From Candidatus Parcubacteria bacterium (GTDB lineage Bacteria > Patescibacteriota > Saccharimonadia > UBA4664 > JBIOIQ01), in assembly GCA_963718875.1 (NCBI GenBank), contig OY970378.1:260396-324395 (forward strand): a stretch of 64,000 nucleotides of DNA, in the 5' to 3' direction. Shown here in pieces: positions 3,932 to 56,439 of the stretch (its first letter is position 1; the number at the start of each line of letters is the position of its first letter). The notes under the pieces were generated by a model, which saw nothing but the letters and a program-made list of their open reading frames with translations, ran no database searches and had not been told where the DNA came from. The position numbers and the translations under genes were made by a program.

Positions 3932-4920
3932 TCGGCAATGTATCTAGTGATATATACAAGTCGCCCCCGCAAGGACGGCTTGTCCCTGGCGGGGGTTAAT
4001 TTTGGAGACGGAGTAGTGGAACTTGCGGAGTCTGGCAGTACTACCCAGAAGTTGCTGACTGGTCTTGGTCCGGACGACGGAATGTTGCGCAGCTCTCCGT
4101 CTACGACCATTTGAGTGGATCCGCCTCCATCTAGGTTGGCGGCGTCAGTGGCACCCAGTCTTAACATCAGGCTTGCTGCTTCATTGAGGCTCATACCGCT
4201 GCTCGCGCGTCCTTTGTCGACTGTGACGAAGATGATTTCTCCGGTTTGGGCGTTCCATCCCATCAAAGTTCGGGCTTGTCTGGATTCAGTGAAGATGGTG
4301 TGCTCTGAAATGGAGGTTTGTATGCCGTCTCGGAGTAGGCGGTAACTGGCCCCTAGGCTTTGAAAAGTCCCAGGTGGGATTTCTCCGTTTTCGCCGTAAC
4401 TAGGGCGGTTTGCTTTGTCGAGTGACACTTGGCTGTGATTGGTGACGGTGGGTCGGATGGGTTGGCCATCTGTAACAATTCCGCCAATCGGTATGCCGTT
4501 GTATAGGTGGATGTCCCCGTTGACCACTAGGAGCGCGTTTAGAGATTTGGCGATGTCGCTCGGCAGGGCCATGAAATGACCCTTGGAATCACGAGGAGCC
4601 AATATGGCCTTGATCTCTACTGCGGCATCTATAGGGATACGGGCGACGTTTATGACGTTCGCGGGATTCGTTTCGGTGATGGTTTGGTATGTCATGCTTG
4701 CTGGTAGCAAGGGAGCGACAGCGCGAGTAGTTGAGGTAGTTGGACTGATTGCGGAAGCCTCTGGCTCACCTATTCTGGATGAAGAGCCGAGAATTATTAT
4801 CAGGCATGCGACAAATGCCAGTCTGCGCATGACCCTCCTCTCTAGATTGTGATGTGCGCCGGTTTGGCTAATATTAGCATAAAGCCACGTAAGCATAAGG
4901 GCAACAATAAAAACACCCAT
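3892..4920 (-). CDS. Phosphodiester glycosidase family protein (NAGPA/DUF2233-like), secreted; GC-rich versus neighbours
   Basis: Motifs LVVNGDIHLYNG...GWNAQTGEIIFVTVDKG...ANLDGGGSTQMVVDG; signal peptide; GC-rich 3' hairpin at 3950-3990. Confidence 0.6.
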   Translation of the reverse strand: MGVFIVALMLTWLYANISQTGAHHNLERRVMRRLAFVACLIIILGSSSRIGEPEASAISPTTSTTRAVAPLLPASMTYQTITETNPANVINVARIPIDAAVEIKAILAPRDSKGHFMALPSDIAKSLNALLVVNGDIHLYNGIPIGGIVTDGQPIRPTVTNHSQVSLDKANRPSYGENGEIPPGTFQSLGASYRLLRDGIQTSISEHTIFTESRQARTLMGWNAQTGEIIFVTVDKGRASSGMSLNEAASLMLRLGATDAANLDGGGSTQMVVDGELRNIPSSGPRPVSNFWVVLPDSASSTTPSPKLTPARDKPSLRGRLVYITRYIADYLEKFSVFTPLP

Positions 4921-4955
4921 AGAATGGGTGTTTTTATTGTATGGGGTGGGGCGTT

Positions 4956-5681
4956 TTAAAACTTTTCTGGGTATTGTTTGACTATGGCGCTTGCCAGCGT
5001 ACTCATGAGGCTTTGAATATGCTTGGCTGCGGCTGCCTGGTCGGTGACTTCAAGGGTATAGTTTCCGGCTACGTGGTCGTCAATGACTTTGGCAGTCATG
5101 GCTACGTGGTCGCCAAAAGCTGACTCTAGAGTGGCTAGGGGCAGGTTGGGGTTAGCACCAGCAAGTAAAGCCGAGATGGGCTTGGTGTAGTTGGTAGCAA
5201 TATCGTTTAACGCAGCGGTTTTGTCGGCTTCTTTTTTGGCTTTGGCTGCCGTGGCGTAGTTTCCCAAAGCGTTTAAGTGGACATTCCAGATTTTTTGAAA
5301 CTCATCTTGAGTGGCTTGGCCGTAAACACTACCTATAGCAGCAGAAATCTCTGTTCCGTTAGCGGTAAGGGCTGCTTTTAGAACTGCAGCATCAGCTTTG
5401 CCGTCAAGGGCGGAATTGATTGCTTGGTTGGTTAAGTTCATATGGGTTGTTCCTAGAGCTACAAGAGTGGCACGGAGATCGGCAGATTTGGTAGTAGTGT
5501 CGGGGGTAGGTGCTGAGGGTGCCGGGGTGGAGGTGACGGTAGGCTCGGTTTGAGCTATGAGTTTGGCGGCGCCAAATCCTAGGGCTACTCCGATTACTCC
5601 TACAACTATTACAACGACAGTTCGTCCTCCTTTGGACGTATTTTGATCTACGTTATTGTCCATTTTATAACCACCTTTCAA
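4956..5681 (-). CDS. Membrane-anchored Ala/Thr/Pro-rich protein, unknown function
   Basis: N-terminal TM then TPAPSAPTPDTTT linker and Ala-rich domain. Confidence 0.45.
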   Translation of the reverse strand: MKGGYKMDNNVDQNTSKGGRTVVVIVVGVIGVALGFGAAKLIAQTEPTVTSTPAPSAPTPDTTTKSADLRATLVALGTTHMNLTNQAINSALDGKADAAVLKAALTANGTEISAAIGSVYGQATQDEFQKIWNVHLNALGNYATAAKAKKEADKTAALNDIATNYTKPISALLAGANPNLPLATLESAFGDHVAMTAKVIDDHVAGNYTLEVTDQAAAAKHIQSLMSTLASAIVKQYPEKF

Positions 5682-21757: not shown

Positions 21758-22708
21758 TTAACTAACAATTTTCAAATGATTATTTATAACTAAATCAGCT
21801 AAAGCCTTGATAAATAAGAGGTCAACATTGGGGAGCTCTATTCGATGGTAGCCGATGTTTGCGTTGCTGGCTTGTTCCGCCGCTGCGATGTCGAGGTCAT
21901 ACAGCACCTCGAGATGATCGGACAAAAATTGGATTGGTACAACTAATACAGCTGGAACCTCTTGCGCGCTAAGTGTGTTTAAAACATCTTGTAGATCTGG
22001 CTTTAGCCATTCTTCCGGTGTGTGACCAGCACTTTGATATGCCGCCACCCAGTCGTCGTCATCAAGGCCAGCCTTCCTAACAATAGCCGCAATGGTTTGC
22101 CGTAACTGTTGCAAATACCCCGGATCACGTTTTACTACACTCTTGGGTAAACTGTGGGTGCTAAAGATTATGGGAACTGGCCCCGCGTAACGAGCTGCCA
22201 GTTCTGCTCGAGATGAGACTAATCGCTCAGATAGCAGTTGGATAAATTTTGGCTGATTTGGCCAAGGTCCAATTACCTGGTAATCCTTGATTCCGGCCTC
22301 GGCCGCCGCATGGGCTAAAGCTTGTTCGTAGCCGCTCATTATGATGCTCGAATACTGCGGAGACAGTAATAAGCCAATAACTTTTGTACAGCCGGCTTGG
22401 GCTAAGTTGATTACGGCATTATCGATATAAGGGGCAGAGTGCAGCATGCCGGCTTTAACAATGTAGGCATTTTGCCCGCATCGCTTTTTTAGCTCAAGTT
22501 CAAGGGCGTGGGCCTGTGCTGTAGTTATCTCAACGAGAGGTGATGATCTGATAAGGTCAAACCGCCGCTTGAATTCGTTGATTACACTTGCAGGAGGCGT
22601 AATGCGATAAACGTGGGTCAAAAAATCAGGCACATCACGGGCGGTGGTGGCCGAGCCGTAGGTCATCATTACCACCCCAATCGGGCTAGACTCAGTGGGT
22701 GTGGACAT
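21758..22708 (-). CDS. hemH: Ferrochelatase (probably coproporphyrin ferrochelatase)
   Basis: Ferrochelatase blocks (MMTYGS..., FSTHSLP, QSAGHTPEEWLKP, SDHLEVLYDLD). Confidence 0.85.
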   Translation of the reverse strand: MSTPTESSPIGVVMMTYGSATTARDVPDFLTHVYRITPPASVINEFKRRFDLIRSSPLVEITTAQAHALELELKKRCGQNAYIVKAGMLHSAPYIDNAVINLAQAGCTKVIGLLLSPQYSSIIMSGYEQALAHAAAEAGIKDYQVIGPWPNQPKFIQLLSERLVSSRAELAARYAGPVPIIFSTHSLPKSVVKRDPGYLQQLRQTIAAIVRKAGLDDDDWVAAYQSAGHTPEEWLKPDLQDVLNTLSAQEVPAVLVVPIQFLSDHLEVLYDLDIAAAEQASNANIGYHRIELPNVDLLFIKALADLVINNHLKIVS

Positions 22709-23717
22709 AGTCGACGAGTCGTTTTAGCATCTCAGGTTCAGCCTGCTTGTAAACGCCATGGCCCAGATTAAAAATGTAGCCGTTGCGGGAGCTGAGCGAG
22801 GCGAGTATTTGATCAGTCTTAGCCGTGATTGTGGCGAAACTGCTTGTAAGTACGGCTGGATCCAGATTGCCTTGGATAGCTTTAGTACCTGCAAATAATT
22901 TTTGGGCCGCATCAATATCTACGCGCCAATCAAGGCCTACTACTTCACAGTCAACAGATGCAAAGTCGTTCAGAATTGACCCGGTGTCGGTACCAAAAAT
23001 AATCCGCGGCACCTTACATCTGGCCAGCGCGTCCATGATCCGGCGGTTATATGGTAAGACATTTTCCCGAAAATCGGCTCCCGATAAGCAGCCCACCCAA
23101 CTGTCGAATAATTGGAGAGCTTGTGCTCCGGCTTTGACTTGTTCCTCGAGGTAAAAAATTATACTGGAAGTGAGCTTTTCCATAAGTTGGCTCCATAGTT
23201 TTGGCTGGTTGTACATAAATTGCTTGGTCGCAAACCAGTCTCTGGTAGGTTTACCTTCAATCAGATAGCTAGCTAGGGTAAACGGCGCCCCTGAAAAGCC
23301 AATCAATGGGACGGTTAGCTCGCGCCTCACTAGCTTGATAGTCTGCGTTAGGTAATCAATTTCGCTGGAGCCAAAATTTTGCATAGCCTCAATATCTCTT
23401 TTATTCCGTATCGGATGGTTAATTATCGGGCCGACCAAATCCACAATCTTCACATCAACGCCCATGGCAATCGGCACCAGCATTATATCGGCAAACAAAA
23501 TGGCAGCATCTACCCCTAAATAATCGACCGGCTGCATAGTGATCTGGGCAGCTAGCTCCGGAGTTTGGGTTAGGGTTAGCATCTCGTATTTCTCGCGCAA
23601 CTTGCGATATTCGGGCATGTAACGTCCCGCCTGGCGCATAAACCAAACTGGCGTATAATCGGTCGATTCCCGGCGGCACGCCCGCAAAAAAGTATCGTTA
23701 AATGTGGCTACAGGCAT
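22692..23717 (-). CDS. hemE: Uroporphyrinogen decarboxylase
   Basis: TDYTPVWFMRQAGRYMPEYR N-terminal signature. Confidence 0.85.
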   Translation of the reverse strand: MPVATFNDTFLRACRRESTDYTPVWFMRQAGRYMPEYRKLREKYEMLTLTQTPELAAQITMQPVDYLGVDAAILFADIMLVPIAMGVDVKIVDLVGPIINHPIRNKRDIEAMQNFGSSEIDYLTQTIKLVRRELTVPLIGFSGAPFTLASYLIEGKPTRDWFATKQFMYNQPKLWSQLMEKLTSSIIFYLEEQVKAGAQALQLFDSWVGCLSGADFRENVLPYNRRIMDALARCKVPRIIFGTDTGSILNDFASVDCEVVGLDWRVDIDAAQKLFAGTKAIQGNLDPAVLTSSFATITAKTDQILASLSSRNGYIFNLGHGVYKQAEPEMLKRLVDYVHTH

Positions 23718-24376
23718 TCGAGCAACTCGACGATTGGCTTATAGATGCAGGTAAATGTGGGCTGGTCATTCTCGGTATAGCGTCGCACCTCAGTTGAGCG
23801 TAGAGCTATCACCAAATCCTGGAACTCTTCTAAGCTTGGCGCCTCATATGAAACGATAAATTCTTGGTCATCCACTCCATAGCTATAAAGTAAACACTGT
23901 CGAACGGTAGGATGCTTTATGCCAACCATAATGTGGGCTTTCATCAGGGCGGCCCGGGTCTCGAAACTAAGAAAGTACCAATCAATAGTTTTGGTAAATG
24001 GGTAAATTATAAGATACGACAGCGGTTGGCCAGGCTTAATAACTTGTTCGGGTGCCTGGGGGGTGCGGCTGTATTGCGACTGACGGATCATGCCAAACAT
24101 AGTTCGGTTGAGTTTAAGCCACTGACCCAGTTTAGTTTTCCATAAACTCTTGAGCAGCGCTTGAACAGCTTCGGGTTGGTCGCTACGGCACCAAAACACC
24201 AGATCACTATCCGGTTTAAAGCCGCGCGAGAGATAGGCGGTTACGCTAATGCTTTTTTGACCCTGGAACCATTTAACAAAGTCGGCTTTTATCACGATTT
24301 GTTCTTTATCTGGCAAACCATAAAATTTCGGCTTAAGTTTAAAGAACAGATAGTGGTGGTAAGGTTGCTTTTCCAT
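23708..24376 (-). CDS. hemQ: Coproheme decarboxylase / chlorite-dismutase-family HemQ
   Basis: Cld-family fold motifs; position between hemE and hemD. Confidence 0.7.
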   Translation of the reverse strand: MEKQPYHHYLFFKLKPKFYGLPDKEQIVIKADFVKWFQGQKSISVTAYLSRGFKPDSDLVFWCRSDQPEAVQALLKSLWKTKLGQWLKLNRTMFGMIRQSQYSRTPQAPEQVIKPGQPLSYLIIYPFTKTIDWYFLSFETRAALMKAHIMVGIKHPTVRQCLLYSYGVDDQEFIVSYEAPSLEEFQDLVIALRSTEVRRYTENDQPTFTCIYKPIVELLECL

Positions 24377-24392
24377 ACTTATTTATACTAGC

Positions 24393-24578
24393 AGAATTAA
24401 TTCAGATTAGACCTCTTTCCAAACCCCCTCAAAAAATCCGAAAACCCGTTTTAGTTGCAATATAGTGGCTTTCTTACGACAAGAGATAGCCATAGTGCTA
24501 CCTTGAGAAGTAAAAAGCCGATAGATTGCCCTATAAACGAGTTTGCAAAGACGGGAGGGTTTGGAAAGAGGTCTAATA
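24393..24578. repeat. About 185-bp element with roughly 25-bp terminal inverted repeats (AGACCTCTTTCCAAACCC / GGGTTTGGAAAGAGGTCT) between hemQ and hemD
   Basis: Inverted repeat read directly; intergenic within the operon; its 3' arm overlaps the hemD stop. Confidence 0.55.
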
Positions 24579-25325
24579 GTTCAGCTGGTCTATCAGCCCT
24601 ATTATGTCAGGTTTGGCTGCAGTGCGGATATGGTTAAATCCAGCGGTTGAAAGTTGACTAGCTATGTGCGGTCCAATCGCTATTACGGGTAGGCTTTGAG
24701 CATGTCCGATGCTTTTATCTTGTTGCAAGCGAAGCTTAAATCCGGCCAAGGCGGAAGGACTGGCAAAGACGATGGCGCCGATTCCGCCGGTATTTAGTAG
24801 CTGGTTAAAACCTAGGTCGGGCGCGGTTATGAGCTTAGTTTTATACACTGCCACGCCGGTTAATTTAGCTGAGCGGGCTAACAGGTTCTGGATTGGTTCT
24901 TTTGGAGCAATATCGGCATGCAGCCAGAGTACTTTTTGGTTTGCGACATCAGGAAGTTCACGGGCTAGCGTCATACTATCGGCCTGGGAGGGGACAAATG
25001 AGACTGCTAGACCAAGCGCCCTAACATGGGTAGCGGTTTGGTTGCCAACAACGGCAATTTTTATTTCATTCATAATACTAATATCAATTTTGAGCTCATC
25101 TAGAAGATTTTTGAGCTGTTTAACCCCGGTCGAACTGGTAAGAATTAACCAGTCGTACGCGCTGATTCGTTCTATTAATGTACGGAGATGGGGGGTAGTC
25201 TCCATTGGGATCATCTGGATACAGGGTAATTCGTAGGGAATGTACCCTTGATCTGCTAATGTAGACGCCCACAATTTATTACCTTCTTGGTCGCGGGTGA
25301 GAACAATGAATTGACCAGTTTTCAT
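24573..25325 (-). CDS. hemD: Uroporphyrinogen-III synthase
   Basis: HemD-like 250-aa protein in heme operon. Confidence 0.65.
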   Translation of the reverse strand: MKTGQFIVLTRDQEGNKLWASTLADQGYIPYELPCIQMIPMETTPHLRTLIERISAYDWLILTSSTGVKQLKNLLDELKIDISIMNEIKIAVVGNQTATHVRALGLAVSFVPSQADSMTLARELPDVANQKVLWLHADIAPKEPIQNLLARSAKLTGVAVYKTKLITAPDLGFNQLLNTGGIGAIVFASPSALAGFKLRLQQDKSIGHAQSLPVIAIGPHIASQLSTAGFNHIRTAAKPDIIGLIDQLNY

Positions 25326-26257
25326 CCTGTCTCAGTCATGATATCGAGCTGCAAGCTAAAATCGCATTTTTTAAGTATTTTGCGCGCCAAATTTTTGGCC
25401 AGATCTAGAGATTGGCTTGTTGAGCCCGCTATTGAGTCTTTAAGTATGATCTTGCCGTCGCCAGAGGCGATCATGCCATACAGTTGTATACTTGTTCCCG
25501 TAATTTTGCCGTAACAGCCAATGGGTAATTTGCAGCCGCCGCCAATGGTTAATGAAAACTGGCGCTCGGCCATGACGGCTTGGTTGGTTTGTTGGTCCTG
25601 AATGTCATTAAGATATTTGGCCAGCTGCGAGTCATCACGGCGGATTTCGACCGCCAGTGCACCTTGCCCAACGGCGGGAACATATTTGAGAGGGTCAAAA
25701 AATTCAGTGACCTCACTTATTCTACCCAGCCGGGCAATTCCGGCCGCGGCAATAACGATAGCGTCGTAATTTTCCTCGCGGAGTTTGCGAAGTCGGGTGT
25801 CAACGTTACCGCGAATGCTTTTAACAACCAAATCAGGTCTACTTGCCAACACCTGGACCTGTCGCCGTCGGCTGTCGGTGCCTATAACTGAGCCTGGTGA
25901 CAGTTGTGCCAGCGTTTTGCCATCGGCTGATATCAGGACATCGCGTGGATCATCGCGCTTCAAAGCTGAGGTTAGCAGCAGGCGCTCATTAATTTCTATC
26001 GGCATATCTTTTAGGCTGTGTACGGCCAAATCGATTTGTTTTTCCAGCAAGGCATTTTCAATCTCGGCCGTAAACCAGGCCTTACCTACAACTCGCTCGG
26101 GAATAGGGCCAGGAAAGGTGTCACCGGCAGTTTTTATAATTACAATTTCAATGTTGAGCTCAGGATGGAGCTTGGTAAGTGATTGGGCAATGAGGTTTGT
26201 TTGTATCTGAGCAAGGTTGCTGCCACGGGTCCCAATTCTAATAGTTTGCGCAGTCAT
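25322..26257 (-). CDS. hemC: Hydroxymethylbilane synthase (porphobilinogen deaminase)
   Basis: IRIGTRGSNLAQIQT...; cofactor-binding C-terminal domain. Confidence 0.85.
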   Translation of the reverse strand: MTAQTIRIGTRGSNLAQIQTNLIAQSLTKLHPELNIEIVIIKTAGDTFPGPIPERVVGKAWFTAEIENALLEKQIDLAVHSLKDMPIEINERLLLTSALKRDDPRDVLISADGKTLAQLSPGSVIGTDSRRRQVQVLASRPDLVVKSIRGNVDTRLRKLREENYDAIVIAAAGIARLGRISEVTEFFDPLKYVPAVGQGALAVEIRRDDSQLAKYLNDIQDQQTNQAVMAERQFSLTIGGGCKLPIGCYGKITGTSIQLYGMIASGDGKIILKDSIAGSTSQSLDLAKNLARKILKKCDFSLQLDIMTETG

Positions 26258-48590: not shown

Positions 48591-49070
48591 ATGCGAACTC
48601 TGTCAAGTTTGGAGTACAGCGAAGCCAGGCTGCTTCTCGAGTACATCGTCGATCAAGCTGGAGATGCCAAGGTTGCAATCTGCGTAGTGGACGCAACCGG
48701 CAAGCTTTTGGCTGCGGCTTCAATCAACGGCGCCGCCTCTCACTACATGACCTTCGCCCTGGCCAAAGCCATCACCGGTCTTCACGAAGAGGATGACACG
48801 GCTGGTTTCCGCCACGATCAGCCTGACCACAGCAGTTGGGTCCCGAAGGAAGAAGGCCAAGGCTGGTCCGAGGGGGAACTAATTCTTGCCGCGCAGCTCA
48901 GCCCAGGCTTCTGCGGCTGGGCAGGGGGCTCAGTCGTAATAGATCCTTCCGAAGAGCTTCACATCTGTGGCTCCATCGGTGTCAGCGGTTTGATGGAGTT
49001 GGAGGATCAAGAGTTGGCGGACAAGCTGCCTGCCCGATTGGTAGCTTTGATACTTACATCGCTATCGCAG
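48591..49070 (+). CDS. GlcG/HbpS-like DUF336 protein (putative heme/cofactor-binding); listed ORF continues to 49232 by reading through module E, so the true 3' end is uncertain
   Basis: A..DAKVAICVVDATGKLLAAASINGAA...FALAKAITG pattern typical of DUF336. Confidence 0.5.
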
Positions 49071-49073
49071 CAT

Positions 49074-49324
49074 AGCCTCGCCGTTCACCTCCGGGTGGGC
49101 GGCGGGGCCGATTCCCAAGTTAGTTATAAAGTTAACTGGTTTAGGAATCGAAAAAAGCTGGGCTCGACTGGATACGGGCTTGACTACGTCAACCCTGGCT
49201 GCCCGATCGGTCGCAGTGTTCCCTCGGGCTAGTCGAACCGGCAGAAGATCGCCGGTTCGAACATTCGCTAGCGCTCATTAAGAAAAGCCGACAACCACAA
49301 GGGTCATCGGCTTTTCTTGGCGGG
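49074..49324 (+). repeat. tRNA-proximal copy of the composite block (E hairpin, tail (i), 190-bp segment with inverted partial tRNA copy, hairpin) ending in the tRNA-Asp 3' end
   Basis: Duplicate of 43066-43338. Confidence 0.7.
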
Positions 49325-49394
49325 CTCGACCGGATTCGAACCGGCGATCTTCTCCGTGACAGGGAGACATGTTGGGCCTCTACACCACGAGCCC
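49318..49394 (-). tRNA. tRNA-Asp (anticodon GTC), GC-rich
   Basis: Cloverleaf read by hand: acceptor GGGCTCG, anticodon arm TCTCC-CTGTCAC-GGAGA, T-arm GCCGG-TTCGAAT-CCGGT, CCA encoded. Confidence 0.8.
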
Positions 49395-53178: not shown

Positions 53179-53940
53179 ATGATGAAAAAAAGATTCAAAT
53201 CTCAACATGGAAGTTTGTTAATCGAGGTCGCATTAGCGCTGATAGTTTTAGGAGCAATTGGAGGAGCCATTTACACTTCCCAGCAAGCTAAAAGGAGCCA
53301 AGTAGCGGTAAAATCGTCCACAACTGAGTCTGAATCCTCGGCTGCAACTGAATATAAGGGGTGGAAAAGCTATACGTCACGCGATGAAGGCCTAACGTTT
53401 AAATATCCGTCTGATTGGCGGATAGAAGTAACTAGCGATGGGCTCTACGATAAGGCAATCTTAACTAGCCCCAATGGTATGGCTCTGCGCTACATGGCGG
53501 ATGTTTCCGGGCTTGGCGGTGGGTGCATGTCGCCCGAATGTCCAGATGTAGCAACTTATAAGCTGGAAAAGATAGCCGATACAAATTCTCCTACAGACTT
53601 ATATTATGTTGAAGGCAGCATTAAGAGTAATGCTAACGGAGATAAACTTAAAAACTTGTATGTACCTCGTATGGGTATCATAAGCAAAACCGAGGGGACT
53701 GAATTGCCAAAAATCGGAGAAGAGCTTGATAGATACCCTTACTATATTTTTGCGCAGAAAAGGAAAAAGCCCACAGGCGAGTTTAAAAGTAACCTGTTTG
53801 GATTGTTTTTCGAAATATATCCTACTCAAGAATCAGATGCGTTGAAGTGGGGATTTGATTCCAAGGCCAAAGTTCAACAGTTCCTCAACTCCAAAGACGC
53901 ACAGACAGCCAAATTAATTTTTAAATCGACCAAGTACTAA
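53179..53940 (+). CDS. Type IV pilin-like protein (prepilin-type leader G|SLLIEV)
   Basis: MMKKRFKSQHG|SLLIEVALALIVL with Glu +5. Confidence 0.5.
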   Translation: MMKKRFKSQHGSLLIEVALALIVLGAIGGAIYTSQQAKRSQVAVKSSTTESESSAATEYKGWKSYTSRDEGLTFKYPSDWRIEVTSDGLYDKAILTSPNGMALRYMADVSGLGGGCMSPECPDVATYKLEKIADTNSPTDLYYVEGSIKSNANGDKLKNLYVPRMGIISKTEGTELPKIGEELDRYPYYIFAQKRKKPTGEFKSNLFGLFFEIYPTQESDALKWGFDSKAKVQQFLNSKDAQTAKLIFKSTKY

Positions 53941-54016
53941 GTGACTGATTCGCAACCGGCGTTACTTCAATAGCATCACTATGACAAGAGAACAGTCCCA
54001 GGTAATTTGAGGCTGT

Positions 54017-54041
54017 TTTCTTGGAGCGAGTGACGGGAATG
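54017..54041 (+). repeat. 25-bp duplicate of the tRNA-Gly 3' end (TTTTCTTGGAGCGAGTGACGGGAAT), an att-like direct repeat
   Basis: Identical to 54183-54207 inside and abutting the tRNA. Confidence 0.65.
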
Positions 54042-54187
54042 TGTCTGGCGCCACCTCCCTGTGGTGCTCGGTATGATCTCAAGCAAGCTTGGCTCAACCT
54101 GCGCTCCTCGTCCATCGGACCTAAAGGTCCGCTTCCCGCACCCAGCTTAGCAAGAAAATACCCCGAGACTAGCTCAGGGTATTTTCT

Positions 54188-54263
54188 TGGAGCGAGTGAC
54201 GGGAATCGAACCCGTGACTCGACCTTGGGAAGGTCGCATTTTACCCCTAAACTACACTCGCGC
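54188..54263 (-). tRNA. tRNA-Gly (anticodon CCC)
   Basis: Acceptor GCGCGAG, D-loop TAGTTTAGGGGTA, anticodon arm CGACC-TTCCCAA-GGTCG, T-arm ACGGG-TTCGATT-CCCGT, CCA. Confidence 0.75.
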
Positions 54264-54334
54264 GCGCGATTGCTATCATACTGCACCATACTGGTTCGCA
54301 GCAATGGTTAAGGCCAGCTTTTACTGGTATAATC

Positions 54335-54742
54335 GTGCTTATGAATCGGCTTAGTCCCGGATCGATAAAAACTCAGTTGAGCGCTACCATGAACGAAATT
54401 CGCGGGTTGCGCTTTTTTCAAGATCATCTATCTTTGGCGTTGTTGTTACCTGCAATTGGGTTTAATATAACGGCTTTTATTGTGATGTTGGTACGAGTAC
54501 ACCCCACAAACTTTTTGGTACCCATACATTACTCTAATCTGGGTGGTTTTGATCAGCTGGGGCCATGGTATGCACCTTACCGCATAGCAGTATTTGGCCT
54601 AGTGGTTACTGTTTCAAATTCGGTATTAGCAGCGTACAGTTTTAGCCGTAGTCGGATTGTCAGCTTTTATTTATTAATCGGAGCATTTGTAGTGTCTTTG
54701 TTTTGTTTAATTATCGGCACTGCATTTGCGGTAGTAGTTTAG
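54335..54742 (+). CDS. Small membrane protein
   Basis: 3-4 TM. Confidence 0.4.
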   Translation: MLMNRLSPGSIKTQLSATMNEIRGLRFFQDHLSLALLLPAIGFNITAFIVMLVRVHPTNFLVPIHYSNLGGFDQLGPWYAPYRIAVFGLVVTVSNSVLAAYSFSRSRIVSFYLLIGAFVVSLFCLIIGTAFAVVV

Positions 54743-54750
54743 GCGCTACC

Positions 54751-56439
54751 ATGGAAACATCTATTAAGCTGCATTTTGTAGATAGGCCATCAGTGGTGAG
54801 ATTTTTAGAAATTTTCCCGGGTTTGGTGTCGTGGCTTTTTTTATTGACACCGATTCTTTTGAGTTTGACACACCCGGTAATAGTAGCCTATTTCATCATT
54901 GCCTTTGACCTGTTTTGGCTTACTAAGTCATTGCGTTTAAGTTTTTACCTGGTGAGGGGTTACCGCAGATTGCATAAAAACCAAAAGGTAGACTGGGAAT
55001 CTAAGCTTCAAATATTGGAACATCTAGATCAAGCTTTGCTTGATACGGAAGCTAAGATTGATAAATTAGTACAAAAGTATCCCTCTATTATTAAAAGATG
55101 GTTTCGATCACCAAAAGCGGCTTTAAAGCGACCTCACTATCAGGCTTTGGTGCTTGAACTAAAAGATTTACAAGACTTATTAGATAGGCGAACAACGATT
55201 ATTAATCCCAAGGATTTGATAAACGTTGTAATAATTGCAACATATAATGAGAGTTTAAAAATTCTTCAACCTACAATTGAAGCAGTATTAAACACAAACT
55301 ACAGTAGCAAGCAGATCTGGCTGGTAATTGCATATGAGCAAAGGGGTGGTGATGAGATTGCCAAGAATGCTCATAAGTTAGTTGGGCAGTATAGTCAGCA
55401 GTTTGGTAAAGCTATGGCTATCGAACATCCTGATAATGTAGCAGGAGAATTTAAGGGAAAAGGGGCCAATATAACTTATGCTGGTAGGGAAGTGGCTAAA
55501 ATTGTTTTTGAACAAAAAATTGATCCGGAAAACGTTATTGTAACCACGCTCGATTCCGATAACCGTCCAGGTAGGGATTACTTTGCTAGTTTAAGTTATA
55601 TTTACGCTACCAATGTTAATCGAATCCGCAAATCATACCAACCGATTGCCATGTTTCTTAACAATATTTGGGATGCTCCGGCTCCTATGAGGGTTATTGC
55701 TACCGGAAATTCTTTTTGGAACATTGTGGAGTCGGTGCGGCCTCATCGCTTGCGTAATTTTGCGGCTCAGTCGCAAGGTCTGCAAACTTTACTTGATACA
55801 GATTTTTGGAGTGTTACGAGCATAGTTGAAGATGGCCACCAGTATTGGAGGACCTATTTTACCTATGATGGCGATCACCAAGTGGTGCCTTTGCCGACTC
55901 CGGTATATCAAGATGCAGTGCTGGCTGACGGTTATTTAAGAACCTTCAAGGTCCAGTATTTGCAGTTGCGCAGATGGGCTTCGGGTGTAACCGACTTTCC
56001 TTATGTGGTTCGGAATTCGATTAAAAATAACCGGATTCCGTGGTCTGACAAGCTGCTGCAAATTGGCCGCTTATTTGAAGGTCATTTTAGCTGGGCTACA
56101 GCGCCGCTTATTATTACATTCGTGGCCTGGTTGCCATTGTTTTTAAACCGGGGCTTTTCGGAATCGGTCTTGGCTCATGAACTGCCTATTATTGCTGGGT
56201 GGATTATGACGATTGCCTTGATTGGATTGTTTGTAACTATTTGGATAAGTATTATCTCGCTACCCCCCAAACCGGTTCGTTATCGCAGGACGAGGGCATT
56301 GGGGATGCTGGCTCAGTGGTTGTTGATGCCAGTAACAACCATTATTTTTAGTGCCACGGCAGCTTTAGACGCTCAGACTAGGATGATGATAGGGAAGTCG
56401 CTAGCGTTTGAGGTAACGGAAAAGGCTACTAAGGAATGA
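54751..56439 (+). CDS. Processive family-2 glycosyltransferase (cellulose/chitin/PNAG-synthase-like) with TM domains
   Basis: IIATYNE, LDSDN (DxD), QLRRW (QxxRW). Confidence 0.65.
   Translation: METSIKLHFVDRPSVVRFLEIFPGLVSWLFLLTPILLSLTHPVIVAYFIIAFDLFWLTKSLRLSFYLVRGYRRLHKNQKVDWESKLQILEHLDQALLDTEAKIDKLVQKYPSIIKRWFRSPKAALKRPHYQALVLELKDLQDLLDRRTTIINPKDLINVVIIATYNESLKILQPTIEAVLNTNYSSKQIWLVIAYEQRGGDEIAKNAHKLVGQYSQQFGKAMAIEHPDNVAGEFKGKGANITYAGREVAKIVFEQKIDPENVIVTTLDSDNRPGRDYFASLSYIYATNVNRIRKSYQPIAMFLNNIWDAPAPMRVIATGNSFWNIVESVRPHRLRNFAAQSQGLQTLLDTDFWSVTSIVEDGHQYWRTYFTYDGDHQVVPLPTPVYQDAVLADGYLRTFKVQYLQLRRWASGVTDFPYVVRNSIKNNRIPWSDKLLQIGRLFEGHFSWATAPLIITFVAWLPLFLNRGFSESVLAHELPIIAGWIMTIALIGLFVTIWISIISLPPKPVRYRRTRALGMLAQWLLMPVTTIIFSATAALDAQTRMMIGKSLAFEVTEKATKE

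Follow-up and report, generated by a model that had tools for sequence, protein, structure and literature searches.

The GC-rich DNA that follows the tRNA-Gly(CCC) gene in the window, the whole 64,000-nucleotide stretch analysed here, is occupied by an RtT-like element that lies outside Rfam family RF00391 as this family is currently defined. Sequence comparison indicates that the 141 bp between the two copies of a short direct repeat, together with the second copy, probably constitute one unit of a family of tRNA-linked non-coding RNAs that is distantly related to RtT RNA or at least closely equivalent to it in architecture. The original prediction had taken the locus for the attL/attR remnant of an integrative element, a reading that has to be abandoned: the supposed insert is a complete, conserved and structured unit found beside tRNAs of five amino-acid types, and its fold covaries. 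What survives of it is the notion of inserted DNA marked by the duplication of a tRNA end, the unit being present or cleanly absent among relatives; the inserted DNA is not the remainder of a larger integrative element.

The repeat and the anatomy of the locus

Two exact copies of the 25-mer TTTTCTTGGAGCGAGTGACGGGAAT, and no more, are present in the window as a direct repeat (54016-54040 and 54182-54206); 100 shuffled sequences contained no match to it at three or fewer mismatches. The exact 25-nt repeat was correctly announced, with its distal copy misplaced by one position (54016-54040, not 54017-54041) and with 137 bp given for a gap that measures 141 bp (166 bp from start to start). Of the 25 nucleotides that had been attributed to the end of tRNA-Gly only 19 belong to it, from A58 in the T-loop to the CCA, and the other six are 3′ flank; the repeat reads AUUCCCGUCACUCGCUCCA|AGAAAA in the tRNA sense. 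Beyond the 25-mer a weaker similarity continues for 31 further nucleotides (direct repeat D1, 56 nt at 77%); it stems from two homologous A/U-flanked hairpins (54151-54189 and 53985-54023), one behind each copy. The anatomy of the locus thus amounts to 1.34 copies of a 166-bp unit (Table 1).

Hairpin 1 has 17-nt arms with 94% complementarity and a stem that includes an A-tract and a U-tract, and from its modelled structure it is possibly a terminator or a processing hairpin; a scan of the locus for terminators and promoters found nothing and left hairpin 1 unscored. The differences between hairpin 2 and hairpin 1 mostly preserve stem pairing, and hairpin 2 is situated 45 bp past the stop codon of a convergent gene for a 253-aa protein. 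The element itself begins 42 nt after tRNA-Gly on the same strand, with only 4 nt between hairpin 1 and its closing helix, and its tail is identical to the end of tRNA-Gly at 19 of 19 positions (25 of 25 with the flank). As had been predicted, the DNA between the repeats has a high GC content (0.55-0.60, where the adjacent coding DNA has 0.38-0.41 and the whole window 0.48) and is non-coding, showing no conserved reading frame. A small ORF in the insert was considered and rejected, since P3 varies in length by numbers not divisible by three and the window and locus L005 do not preserve a common frame. A 127-aa ORF (53921-54304, minus strand) that runs through the tRNA, both hairpins and the element is a mechanical artefact of the ORF list and not a gene.

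Table 1. Features of the tRNA-Gly locus, in window coordinates
Feature	Coordinates	Strand	Basis or remark
tRNA-Gly(CCC), CCA encoded	54188..54261	-	ARAGORN; Rfam tRNA 66.6 bits
Repeat copy A: 19 nt of tRNA 3′ end (A58..CCA) and 6 nt of 3′ flank (AGAAAA)	54182..54206	-	
Hairpin 1, directly 3′ of tRNA-Gly	54151..54189	-	Inverted repeat I1; fold
RtT-like element, 125 nt, 5′ arm to CCA	54022..54146	-	CM R1 131.5 bits, R2 106.6 bits, full length; nhmmer E=2.6e-27
5′ arm GGGUGCGGGAA, pairs with the tRNA-like 3′ end (closing stem)	54133..54143	-	MFE and centroid folds; helix 1
P1 hairpin CGGACC-UUUA-GGUCCG (family consensus GAACC...GGUUC)	54116..54131	-	Helix 2, 93.5% paired
Near-invariant block GGUCCGAUGGACGAGGAGCGCAG (P1 3′ strand, joiner, P2 5′ strand)	54099..54121	-	MAFFT alignment A2 columns; anchors
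P3 variable hairpin	54071..54098	-	Helices 4 and 5
Near-invariant block CCGAGCACCACAGGGAG (P2 3′ strand GCACC plus joiner)	54055..54071	-	
P4 hairpin GUGGC-GCCA-GACAC	54041..54054	-	Helix 6
Repeat copy B	54016..54040	-	54022-54040, tRNA-like 3′ end of the element (AUUCCCGUCACUCGCUCCA); 54016-54021, start of hairpin 2
Hairpin 2, homologous to hairpin 1	53985..54023	-	Direct repeat D1; fold

In the window the closing helix pairs GC-U-GGGUG-CGGGAA with UUCCCG-U-CACUC-GC over about 12-13 bp and is followed by U-CCA, an arrangement like that of the tRNA half made up of acceptor and T-stem, with a 93-nt domain in place of the T-loop. The helix encloses three hairpins (P1, P3 and P4), a short helix, P2, and a pair of joining strands that are rich in purines and almost invariant. 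The acceptor/T-arm stack is also mimicked, by about 12 bp with NCCA, in tmRNA, the 4.5S RNA precursor and the minihelix substrates of RNase P. The element differs from these in having neither a T-loop nor a tag reading frame, in that ARAGORN and Rfam find no tmRNA or SRP RNA in it, and in that its tail is copied from the neighbouring tRNA instead of being a conserved sequence of the RNA's own. Over the locus Rfam returned only the tRNA, at the gathering threshold and at E up to 10, with no SRP RNA, 6S RNA, tmRNA, RNase P RNA, ribozyme or T-box.

A family of tRNA-linked units and its fold

The 125-nt unit was found with nhmmer and covariance models in at least 16 Saccharibacteria or metagenome loci, of which L195 is on a Saccharibacteria contig. 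With the insert as query, nhmmer detected homologues in L005, L029, L030, L001, L011 and L012; a scan of metagenomes with a degenerate pattern, filtered with nhmmer, gave at least seven more loci (L122, L163, L102, L195, L198, L140 and L182), and a covariance model added L021, L042 and L014. Matches of the covariance model R2 in L187, L121 and L138 were discarded as false positives: they are coding, have no tRNA and come from loci preselected with the pattern.

The tRNA-linked copies are placed just 3′ of the tRNA gene, after a hairpin. Their partners comprise five amino-acid types and six isoacceptors: tRNA-Gly (the window, L005, L030, L011 and L012), tRNA-Asp (L029, L163 and L014), tRNA-Tyr (L195), tRNA-Ser-TGA (L182), tRNA-Ser-GGA (L140) and tRNA-Arg-CCT (L042). 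Upstream of the units of L021, L122, L102 and L198 there is no tRNA. Nearly every tRNA-linked copy ends in the last 17-19 nt of its own upstream tRNA, from which the tail departs by 0-2 mismatches and, in the decayed copies of L014 and L140, by small indels. The core blocks GGUUCGGYGRACGAGRAGCGCAG and YCGAGCAYCRCAGGRAGG are almost invariant whereas the GT2 proteins of the hosts are only 43-61% identical, the range in which the GT2 protein flanking the element in the window (54703-56439) finds its best relatives, in genomes of Saccharibacteria (TM7) and other Patescibacteria.

This distribution bears directly on two other explanations of the repeat. If the locus contained a degenerate second tRNA-Gly gene, or a functionless local duplication, the perfect copy of the tRNA tail would be accounted for, and P1 is faintly like the anticodon stem of tRNA-Gly (CGACC...GGUCG). 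Nevertheless, neither ARAGORN nor Rfam sees a tRNA in 54016-54187, the core also comes with Asp, Tyr, Ser and Arg tails, and it is strongly conserved across hosts with such divergent proteins; the cross-tRNA distribution refutes the duplicate, to which we give practically no credence. Only marginally better placed is the deletion remnant of a once larger tRNA-integrating island or prophage, which would explain direct repeats of the tRNA 3′ end with the appearance of attL and attR. One and the same conserved 105-nt core, found in at least 16 loci next to tRNAs of five amino-acid types, is not what separate deletions would produce, and no integrase fragments were present in the window ORFs tested. 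Moreover, relatives have the same small unit or nothing, never an island; the larger occupants expected between the repeats came down to one glycosyltransferase-like gene in L001. A scar is therefore very improbable and largely refuted.

The reading as a unit of an RNA family leads to the fold. In single-sequence predictions the 5′ arm repeatedly pairs with the tRNA-like tail and the three hairpins form. Taken by itself the element shows no unusual stability (z=-1.04), so that the case for the fold is a comparative one; with the flanking hairpins included, the stability is exceptional (z=-4.57). Whole-family MAFFT alignments misplace the 5′ arm and P1, and therefore the structural alignment was taken from a covariance model seeded on three sequences with a hand-drawn structure, to which 13 members were then aligned. 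In this alignment, which is fitted to the model, 87.6% of the cells are paired against 69.4% after shuffling (none of 500 shuffles was as high), and the control in which partners were slid by 1-3 columns gave 32-42%. Both sides have changed in 26 of the 34 pairs, a count that leans towards the model to which the 13-member alignment was fitted; the corresponding figures are 8 of 11 pairs for the closing stem (helix 1), 9 of 9 for P3 (helices 4 and 5) and 5 of 5 for P4 (helix 6). The MAFFT alignment, which was not fitted to the structure, contains R-Y covariation in P2 (AU:4, GC:3), and in it the closing pair of P3 alternates between G-C and A-U in step.

The pairing of arm and tail follows the individual copies. 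In L195 the 5′ arm GAGAGGGAU fits its own altered tail AUCCCUCUC and not that of the tRNA, and over the family the pairing energy of the 5′ arms averages -15.7 kcal/mol with their own tails and -11.3 kcal/mol with the tails of other tRNAs, G-rich arms being promiscuous. A subtype B (L030, L011, L012, L198 and L042) has a different register of P2, and a clear 5′ arm is mostly absent from it. Taken across the family, the comparison demonstrates that the predicted fold is maintained by compensatory changes. Two further relations were tried and rejected: a helix between the CCA end and the conserved joiner GGUGGA fits the Gly-linked copies and fails for Tyr and for E. coli, and derivation of the 5′ arm from the T-stem 5′ strand plus variable loop of the tRNA itself fits tRNA-Gly loosely and fails for tRNA-Tyr.

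Relation to RtT RNA

RtT RNA corresponds to rttR, whose 178-bp units occur about three times after tyrT/tyrV in E. coli (Bosl & Kersten 1991, cited in PMC7542023). As PMC7542023 and bioRxiv 10.1101/2024.07.17.603846 present it, the RNA has since 1991 been one of enterobacteria only, of tRNA-Tyr only and of no established function. The former mentions that its copy number varies between Erwinia strains (PMC7542023), and the latter that the tyrT/rttR region is stress-responsive (bioRxiv 10.1101/2024.07.17.603846). A literature search for RtT-like or tRNA-linked repeats found nothing relevant.

The tyrT-tyrV-rttR locus of E. coli K-12 carries 3.14 RtT units in tandem, each ordered as a 5′ arm GGGGAAGGAU, GAGAA, a hairpin GAAGCUU..AAGGUUCGA, further hairpins and AAUCCUUCCCCCACCACCA, the latter being the last 19 nt of E. 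coli tRNA-Tyr. Searching in both directions gave signals of different quality. The Rfam model RF00391 scored 25.3 bits on the Tyr-linked unit of L195 (E=0.0084 in 400 nt), below its gathering threshold of 45 bits and partly owing to the tRNA-Tyr tail common to both; it gave no match to the window copy at E up to 10, and none to L163. A sequence-only HMM of the family (nhmmer) did not find E. coli RtT. The model R2, built from 13 members none of which is from E. coli, had as its top four matches in the 3-kb E. coli locus (L217) the four RtT units, full length and on the correct strand, at 13.8-16.8 bits (E 3.6e-4 to 2.8e-3), with the next match at 6 bits; these matches share their 3′ end coordinates with the RtT matches of Rfam. 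In 0.5 Mb of unselected relatives, all R2 matches at E<=1 were family members except for two weak ones (~17 bits), which are tRNA-linked units. A spacer between tyrU and glyT of E. coli, also inspected, is not RtT-like.

Both kinds of unit are placed directly 3′ of a tRNA gene on the same strand, measure about 123-130 nt from 5′ arm to CCA, and finish with the terminal 19 nt of the upstream tRNA, a stretch that begins at an identical T-loop position in the two cases. In both, the 5′ arm pairs with the tail as a closing structure that holds more hairpins inside, the arm is followed by GA(U)GAGAA and then by a GAACC...GGUUCG hairpin (the motif common to E. coli RtT and the family is GAUGAGAAC...GGUUCG), and partial tandem units have formed. 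The differences are also clear. The host of the window element is a relative of Saccharibacteria and not an enterobacterium, and the family has tRNA-Gly(CCC), Asp, Arg, Tyr and Ser as partners whereas RtT has only tRNA-Tyr. A hairpin separates tRNA and element in the family, and its members score below the Rfam threshold or give no match at all. For the central domain of the family (GGUUCGGYGRACGAGRAGCGCAG ... YCGAGCAYCRCAGGRAGG) E. coli RtT offers nothing that can be aligned: both models match up only the outer portions and leave the middle 52-58 nt out of the alignment. On balance we lean towards distant homology of the window element and RtT, the alternative being convergence on the same design.

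The RtT design now appears in a very distant lineage of small genomes, Saccharibacteria, and beside tRNAs of at least five amino-acid types, and the Saccharibacteria family offers a comparative handle on what such RNAs do. For genome scans it follows that a short duplicated tRNA 3′ end is not necessarily the scar of an integration.

Turnover and a possible mechanism

The unit is present at 6 of 28 tRNA-Gly loci. In L013 tRNA-Gly is followed by tRNA-Thr after 1 nt, with no unit between them, and in L012, L030 and L011 the unit stands between the same two tRNAs, with the same junction to tRNA-Thr after the second repeat copy. The GT2 proteins of the loci L030 and L014 are 98% identical and the flanking DNA is 94-96% identical, yet the unit of L030 (5339-5461) is replaced in L014 (5275-5460) by 186 unrelated nucleotides without a copy of the tRNA tail; the swap has sharp boundaries, one immediately past the hairpin and the other on the first nucleotide of tRNA-Thr. 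So clean an exchange between near-identical flanks means that the turnover of the unit is rapid, and close relatives differ by its gain, loss or replacement.

The surroundings of these loci are themselves variable. In L001-L043 the genes for tRNA-Asp, tRNA-Thr(CGT) and tRNA-Gly(CCC) are found about 0.3-3 kb upstream of the GT2 gene, a neighbourhood that is kept, and the trio occurs in almost every possible order and orientation, with spacers from 1 nt to several kb; judged by gene order, this neighbourhood is a rearrangement hotspot. In the window the Thr and Gly tRNAs are 3.8 kb apart, with an ECF-type sigma factor and proteins of 477 and 253 aa encoded between them. In L016, just before tRNA-Thr and in the usual place of the 74-nt tRNA-Gly(CCC), ARAGORN calls a 74-nt tRNA with anticodon CCT (Arg) at 5283-5356, which may represent an anticodon change in a Gly-type tRNA body. 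In L001 a 326-aa gene on the opposite strand (4154-5432), with a weak match to glycosyltransferase-2, is enclosed by direct repeats of about 85 bp that consist of the post-tRNA hairpin and the first part of the element. The second of these repeats runs on into a complete copy of the element with a tail, AUUCGGCGGCACCCCACC, that has lost its match to tRNA-Gly.

A mobile cassette at the DNA level has to be weighed against the RNA unit at this point. Such a cassette would consist of 166 bp bearing an attP site, would be moved by an integrase acting in trans and targeting the stretch from T-loop to CCA, and would use the conserved blocks as protein-binding sites. Its direct repeat from the T-loop past the CCA is like that of many tRNA att sites, the occupied and empty sites are clean, with a sharp swap between near-identical genomes, and two 12-nt direct-repeat-like blocks, CGAGGAGCGCAG and CGAGCACCACAG, flank P3 as candidate arm-type sites. 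As at tRNA-gene att sites, inserted DNA lies between direct repeats of the segment from T-loop to CCA, and some relatives have the site filled while others have it empty; unlike such att sites, the element brings no integrase and carries a single structured RNA as cargo, it has no inverted core site and a 5′ arm complementary to the tail, and one core occurs with many different tRNA tails.

The remaining evidence also speaks against the cassette. No integrase or recombinase domain is present in the 27 window ORFs tested, and three scans of viral contigs gave only chance matches, none confirmed by nhmmer or covariance model. Beside copy B an inverted core-type site is absent, the upstream GCCAGACAC not being the complement of CCCGU on direct reading. 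The circle would be only about 166 bp, and a circle of this size is very small for recombinase synapsis. P1, P3, P4 and the closing stem vary and yet keep their pairing, which points to RNA and not to protein-binding DNA, and the 5′ arm co-varies with the tRNA tail, something a DNA att model does not predict. We consider the DNA cassette unlikely. A 21-nt match to a phage contig (L091) is inside a coding region (EHHREVA) and is due to chance.

For the RNA unit we propose the following sequence of events. The element would be transcribed by read-through from the tRNA-Gly promoter, because there is no room for a promoter of its own between hairpin 1 and the 5′ arm; a point against read-through is that hairpin 1 is terminator-like and would limit it. 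RNase P would then cut at the 5′ arm and the 3′-end enzymes would trim to the CCA, releasing an RNA of about 125 nt, since the closing helix mimics the minimal substrate of these tRNA maturation enzymes. The invariant junction of the released RNA would bind a partner. In this scheme the repeat would exist because the tRNA tail has a function within the element, and the tail would be held identical to that of the neighbouring tRNA by recombination or gene conversion within the short shared stretch. Exchange of this kind would also give rise to tandem arrays (3.14 units in E. coli, 1.34 here), and the identity that extends 6 nt past the CCA, while the hairpins have diverged, points to a recent event. 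How a 125-nt unit acquires the tail of its neighbour tRNA together with a matching 5′ arm is the question that this raises.

A wider proposal, which we regard as doubtful, is that RtT and the Saccharibacteria family belong, as separate branches, to a single widespread class of non-coding RNA genes that propagate themselves and live on tRNA genes. Members of such a class might borrow the tRNA tail for transcription, excision and a CCA end, and might spread through the shared tail by recombination or by an RNA-templated step; the invariant junction could then serve the spread or a cellular role, for example sensing or modulating the pool of uncharged tRNA.

The original prediction, in seeing a second tRNA of the window used as a site, agrees with tRNA-Asp (49318-49394), which probably carries a related, decayed unit. 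Downstream of it, at 49150-49290 on the minus strand, an A/U-flanked hairpin is followed by about 130 nt with a GAACCGGC...GCCGGUUCGA hairpin, and at the end of the stretch AUCCAGUCGAGCCC repeats the tRNA-Asp tail in degenerate form and lacks the CCA. Its layout aligns with the Asp-linked units of L014, L029 and L163; the R2 score is 7 bits, which is not significant. The stretch overlaps the 3′ end of an ORF (48591-49232) whose HbpS-like domain ends at residue 144. From this layout 49150-49290 is probably a decayed second RtT-like unit.

Elsewhere in the window, positions 21758-26257 hold a run of haem-biosynthesis genes (ferrochelatase, uroporphyrinogen decarboxylase, HemD and porphobilinogen deaminase). 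Because biosynthesis is very reduced in Saccharibacteria, this run may be unusual for a genome that has its nearest relatives among them.
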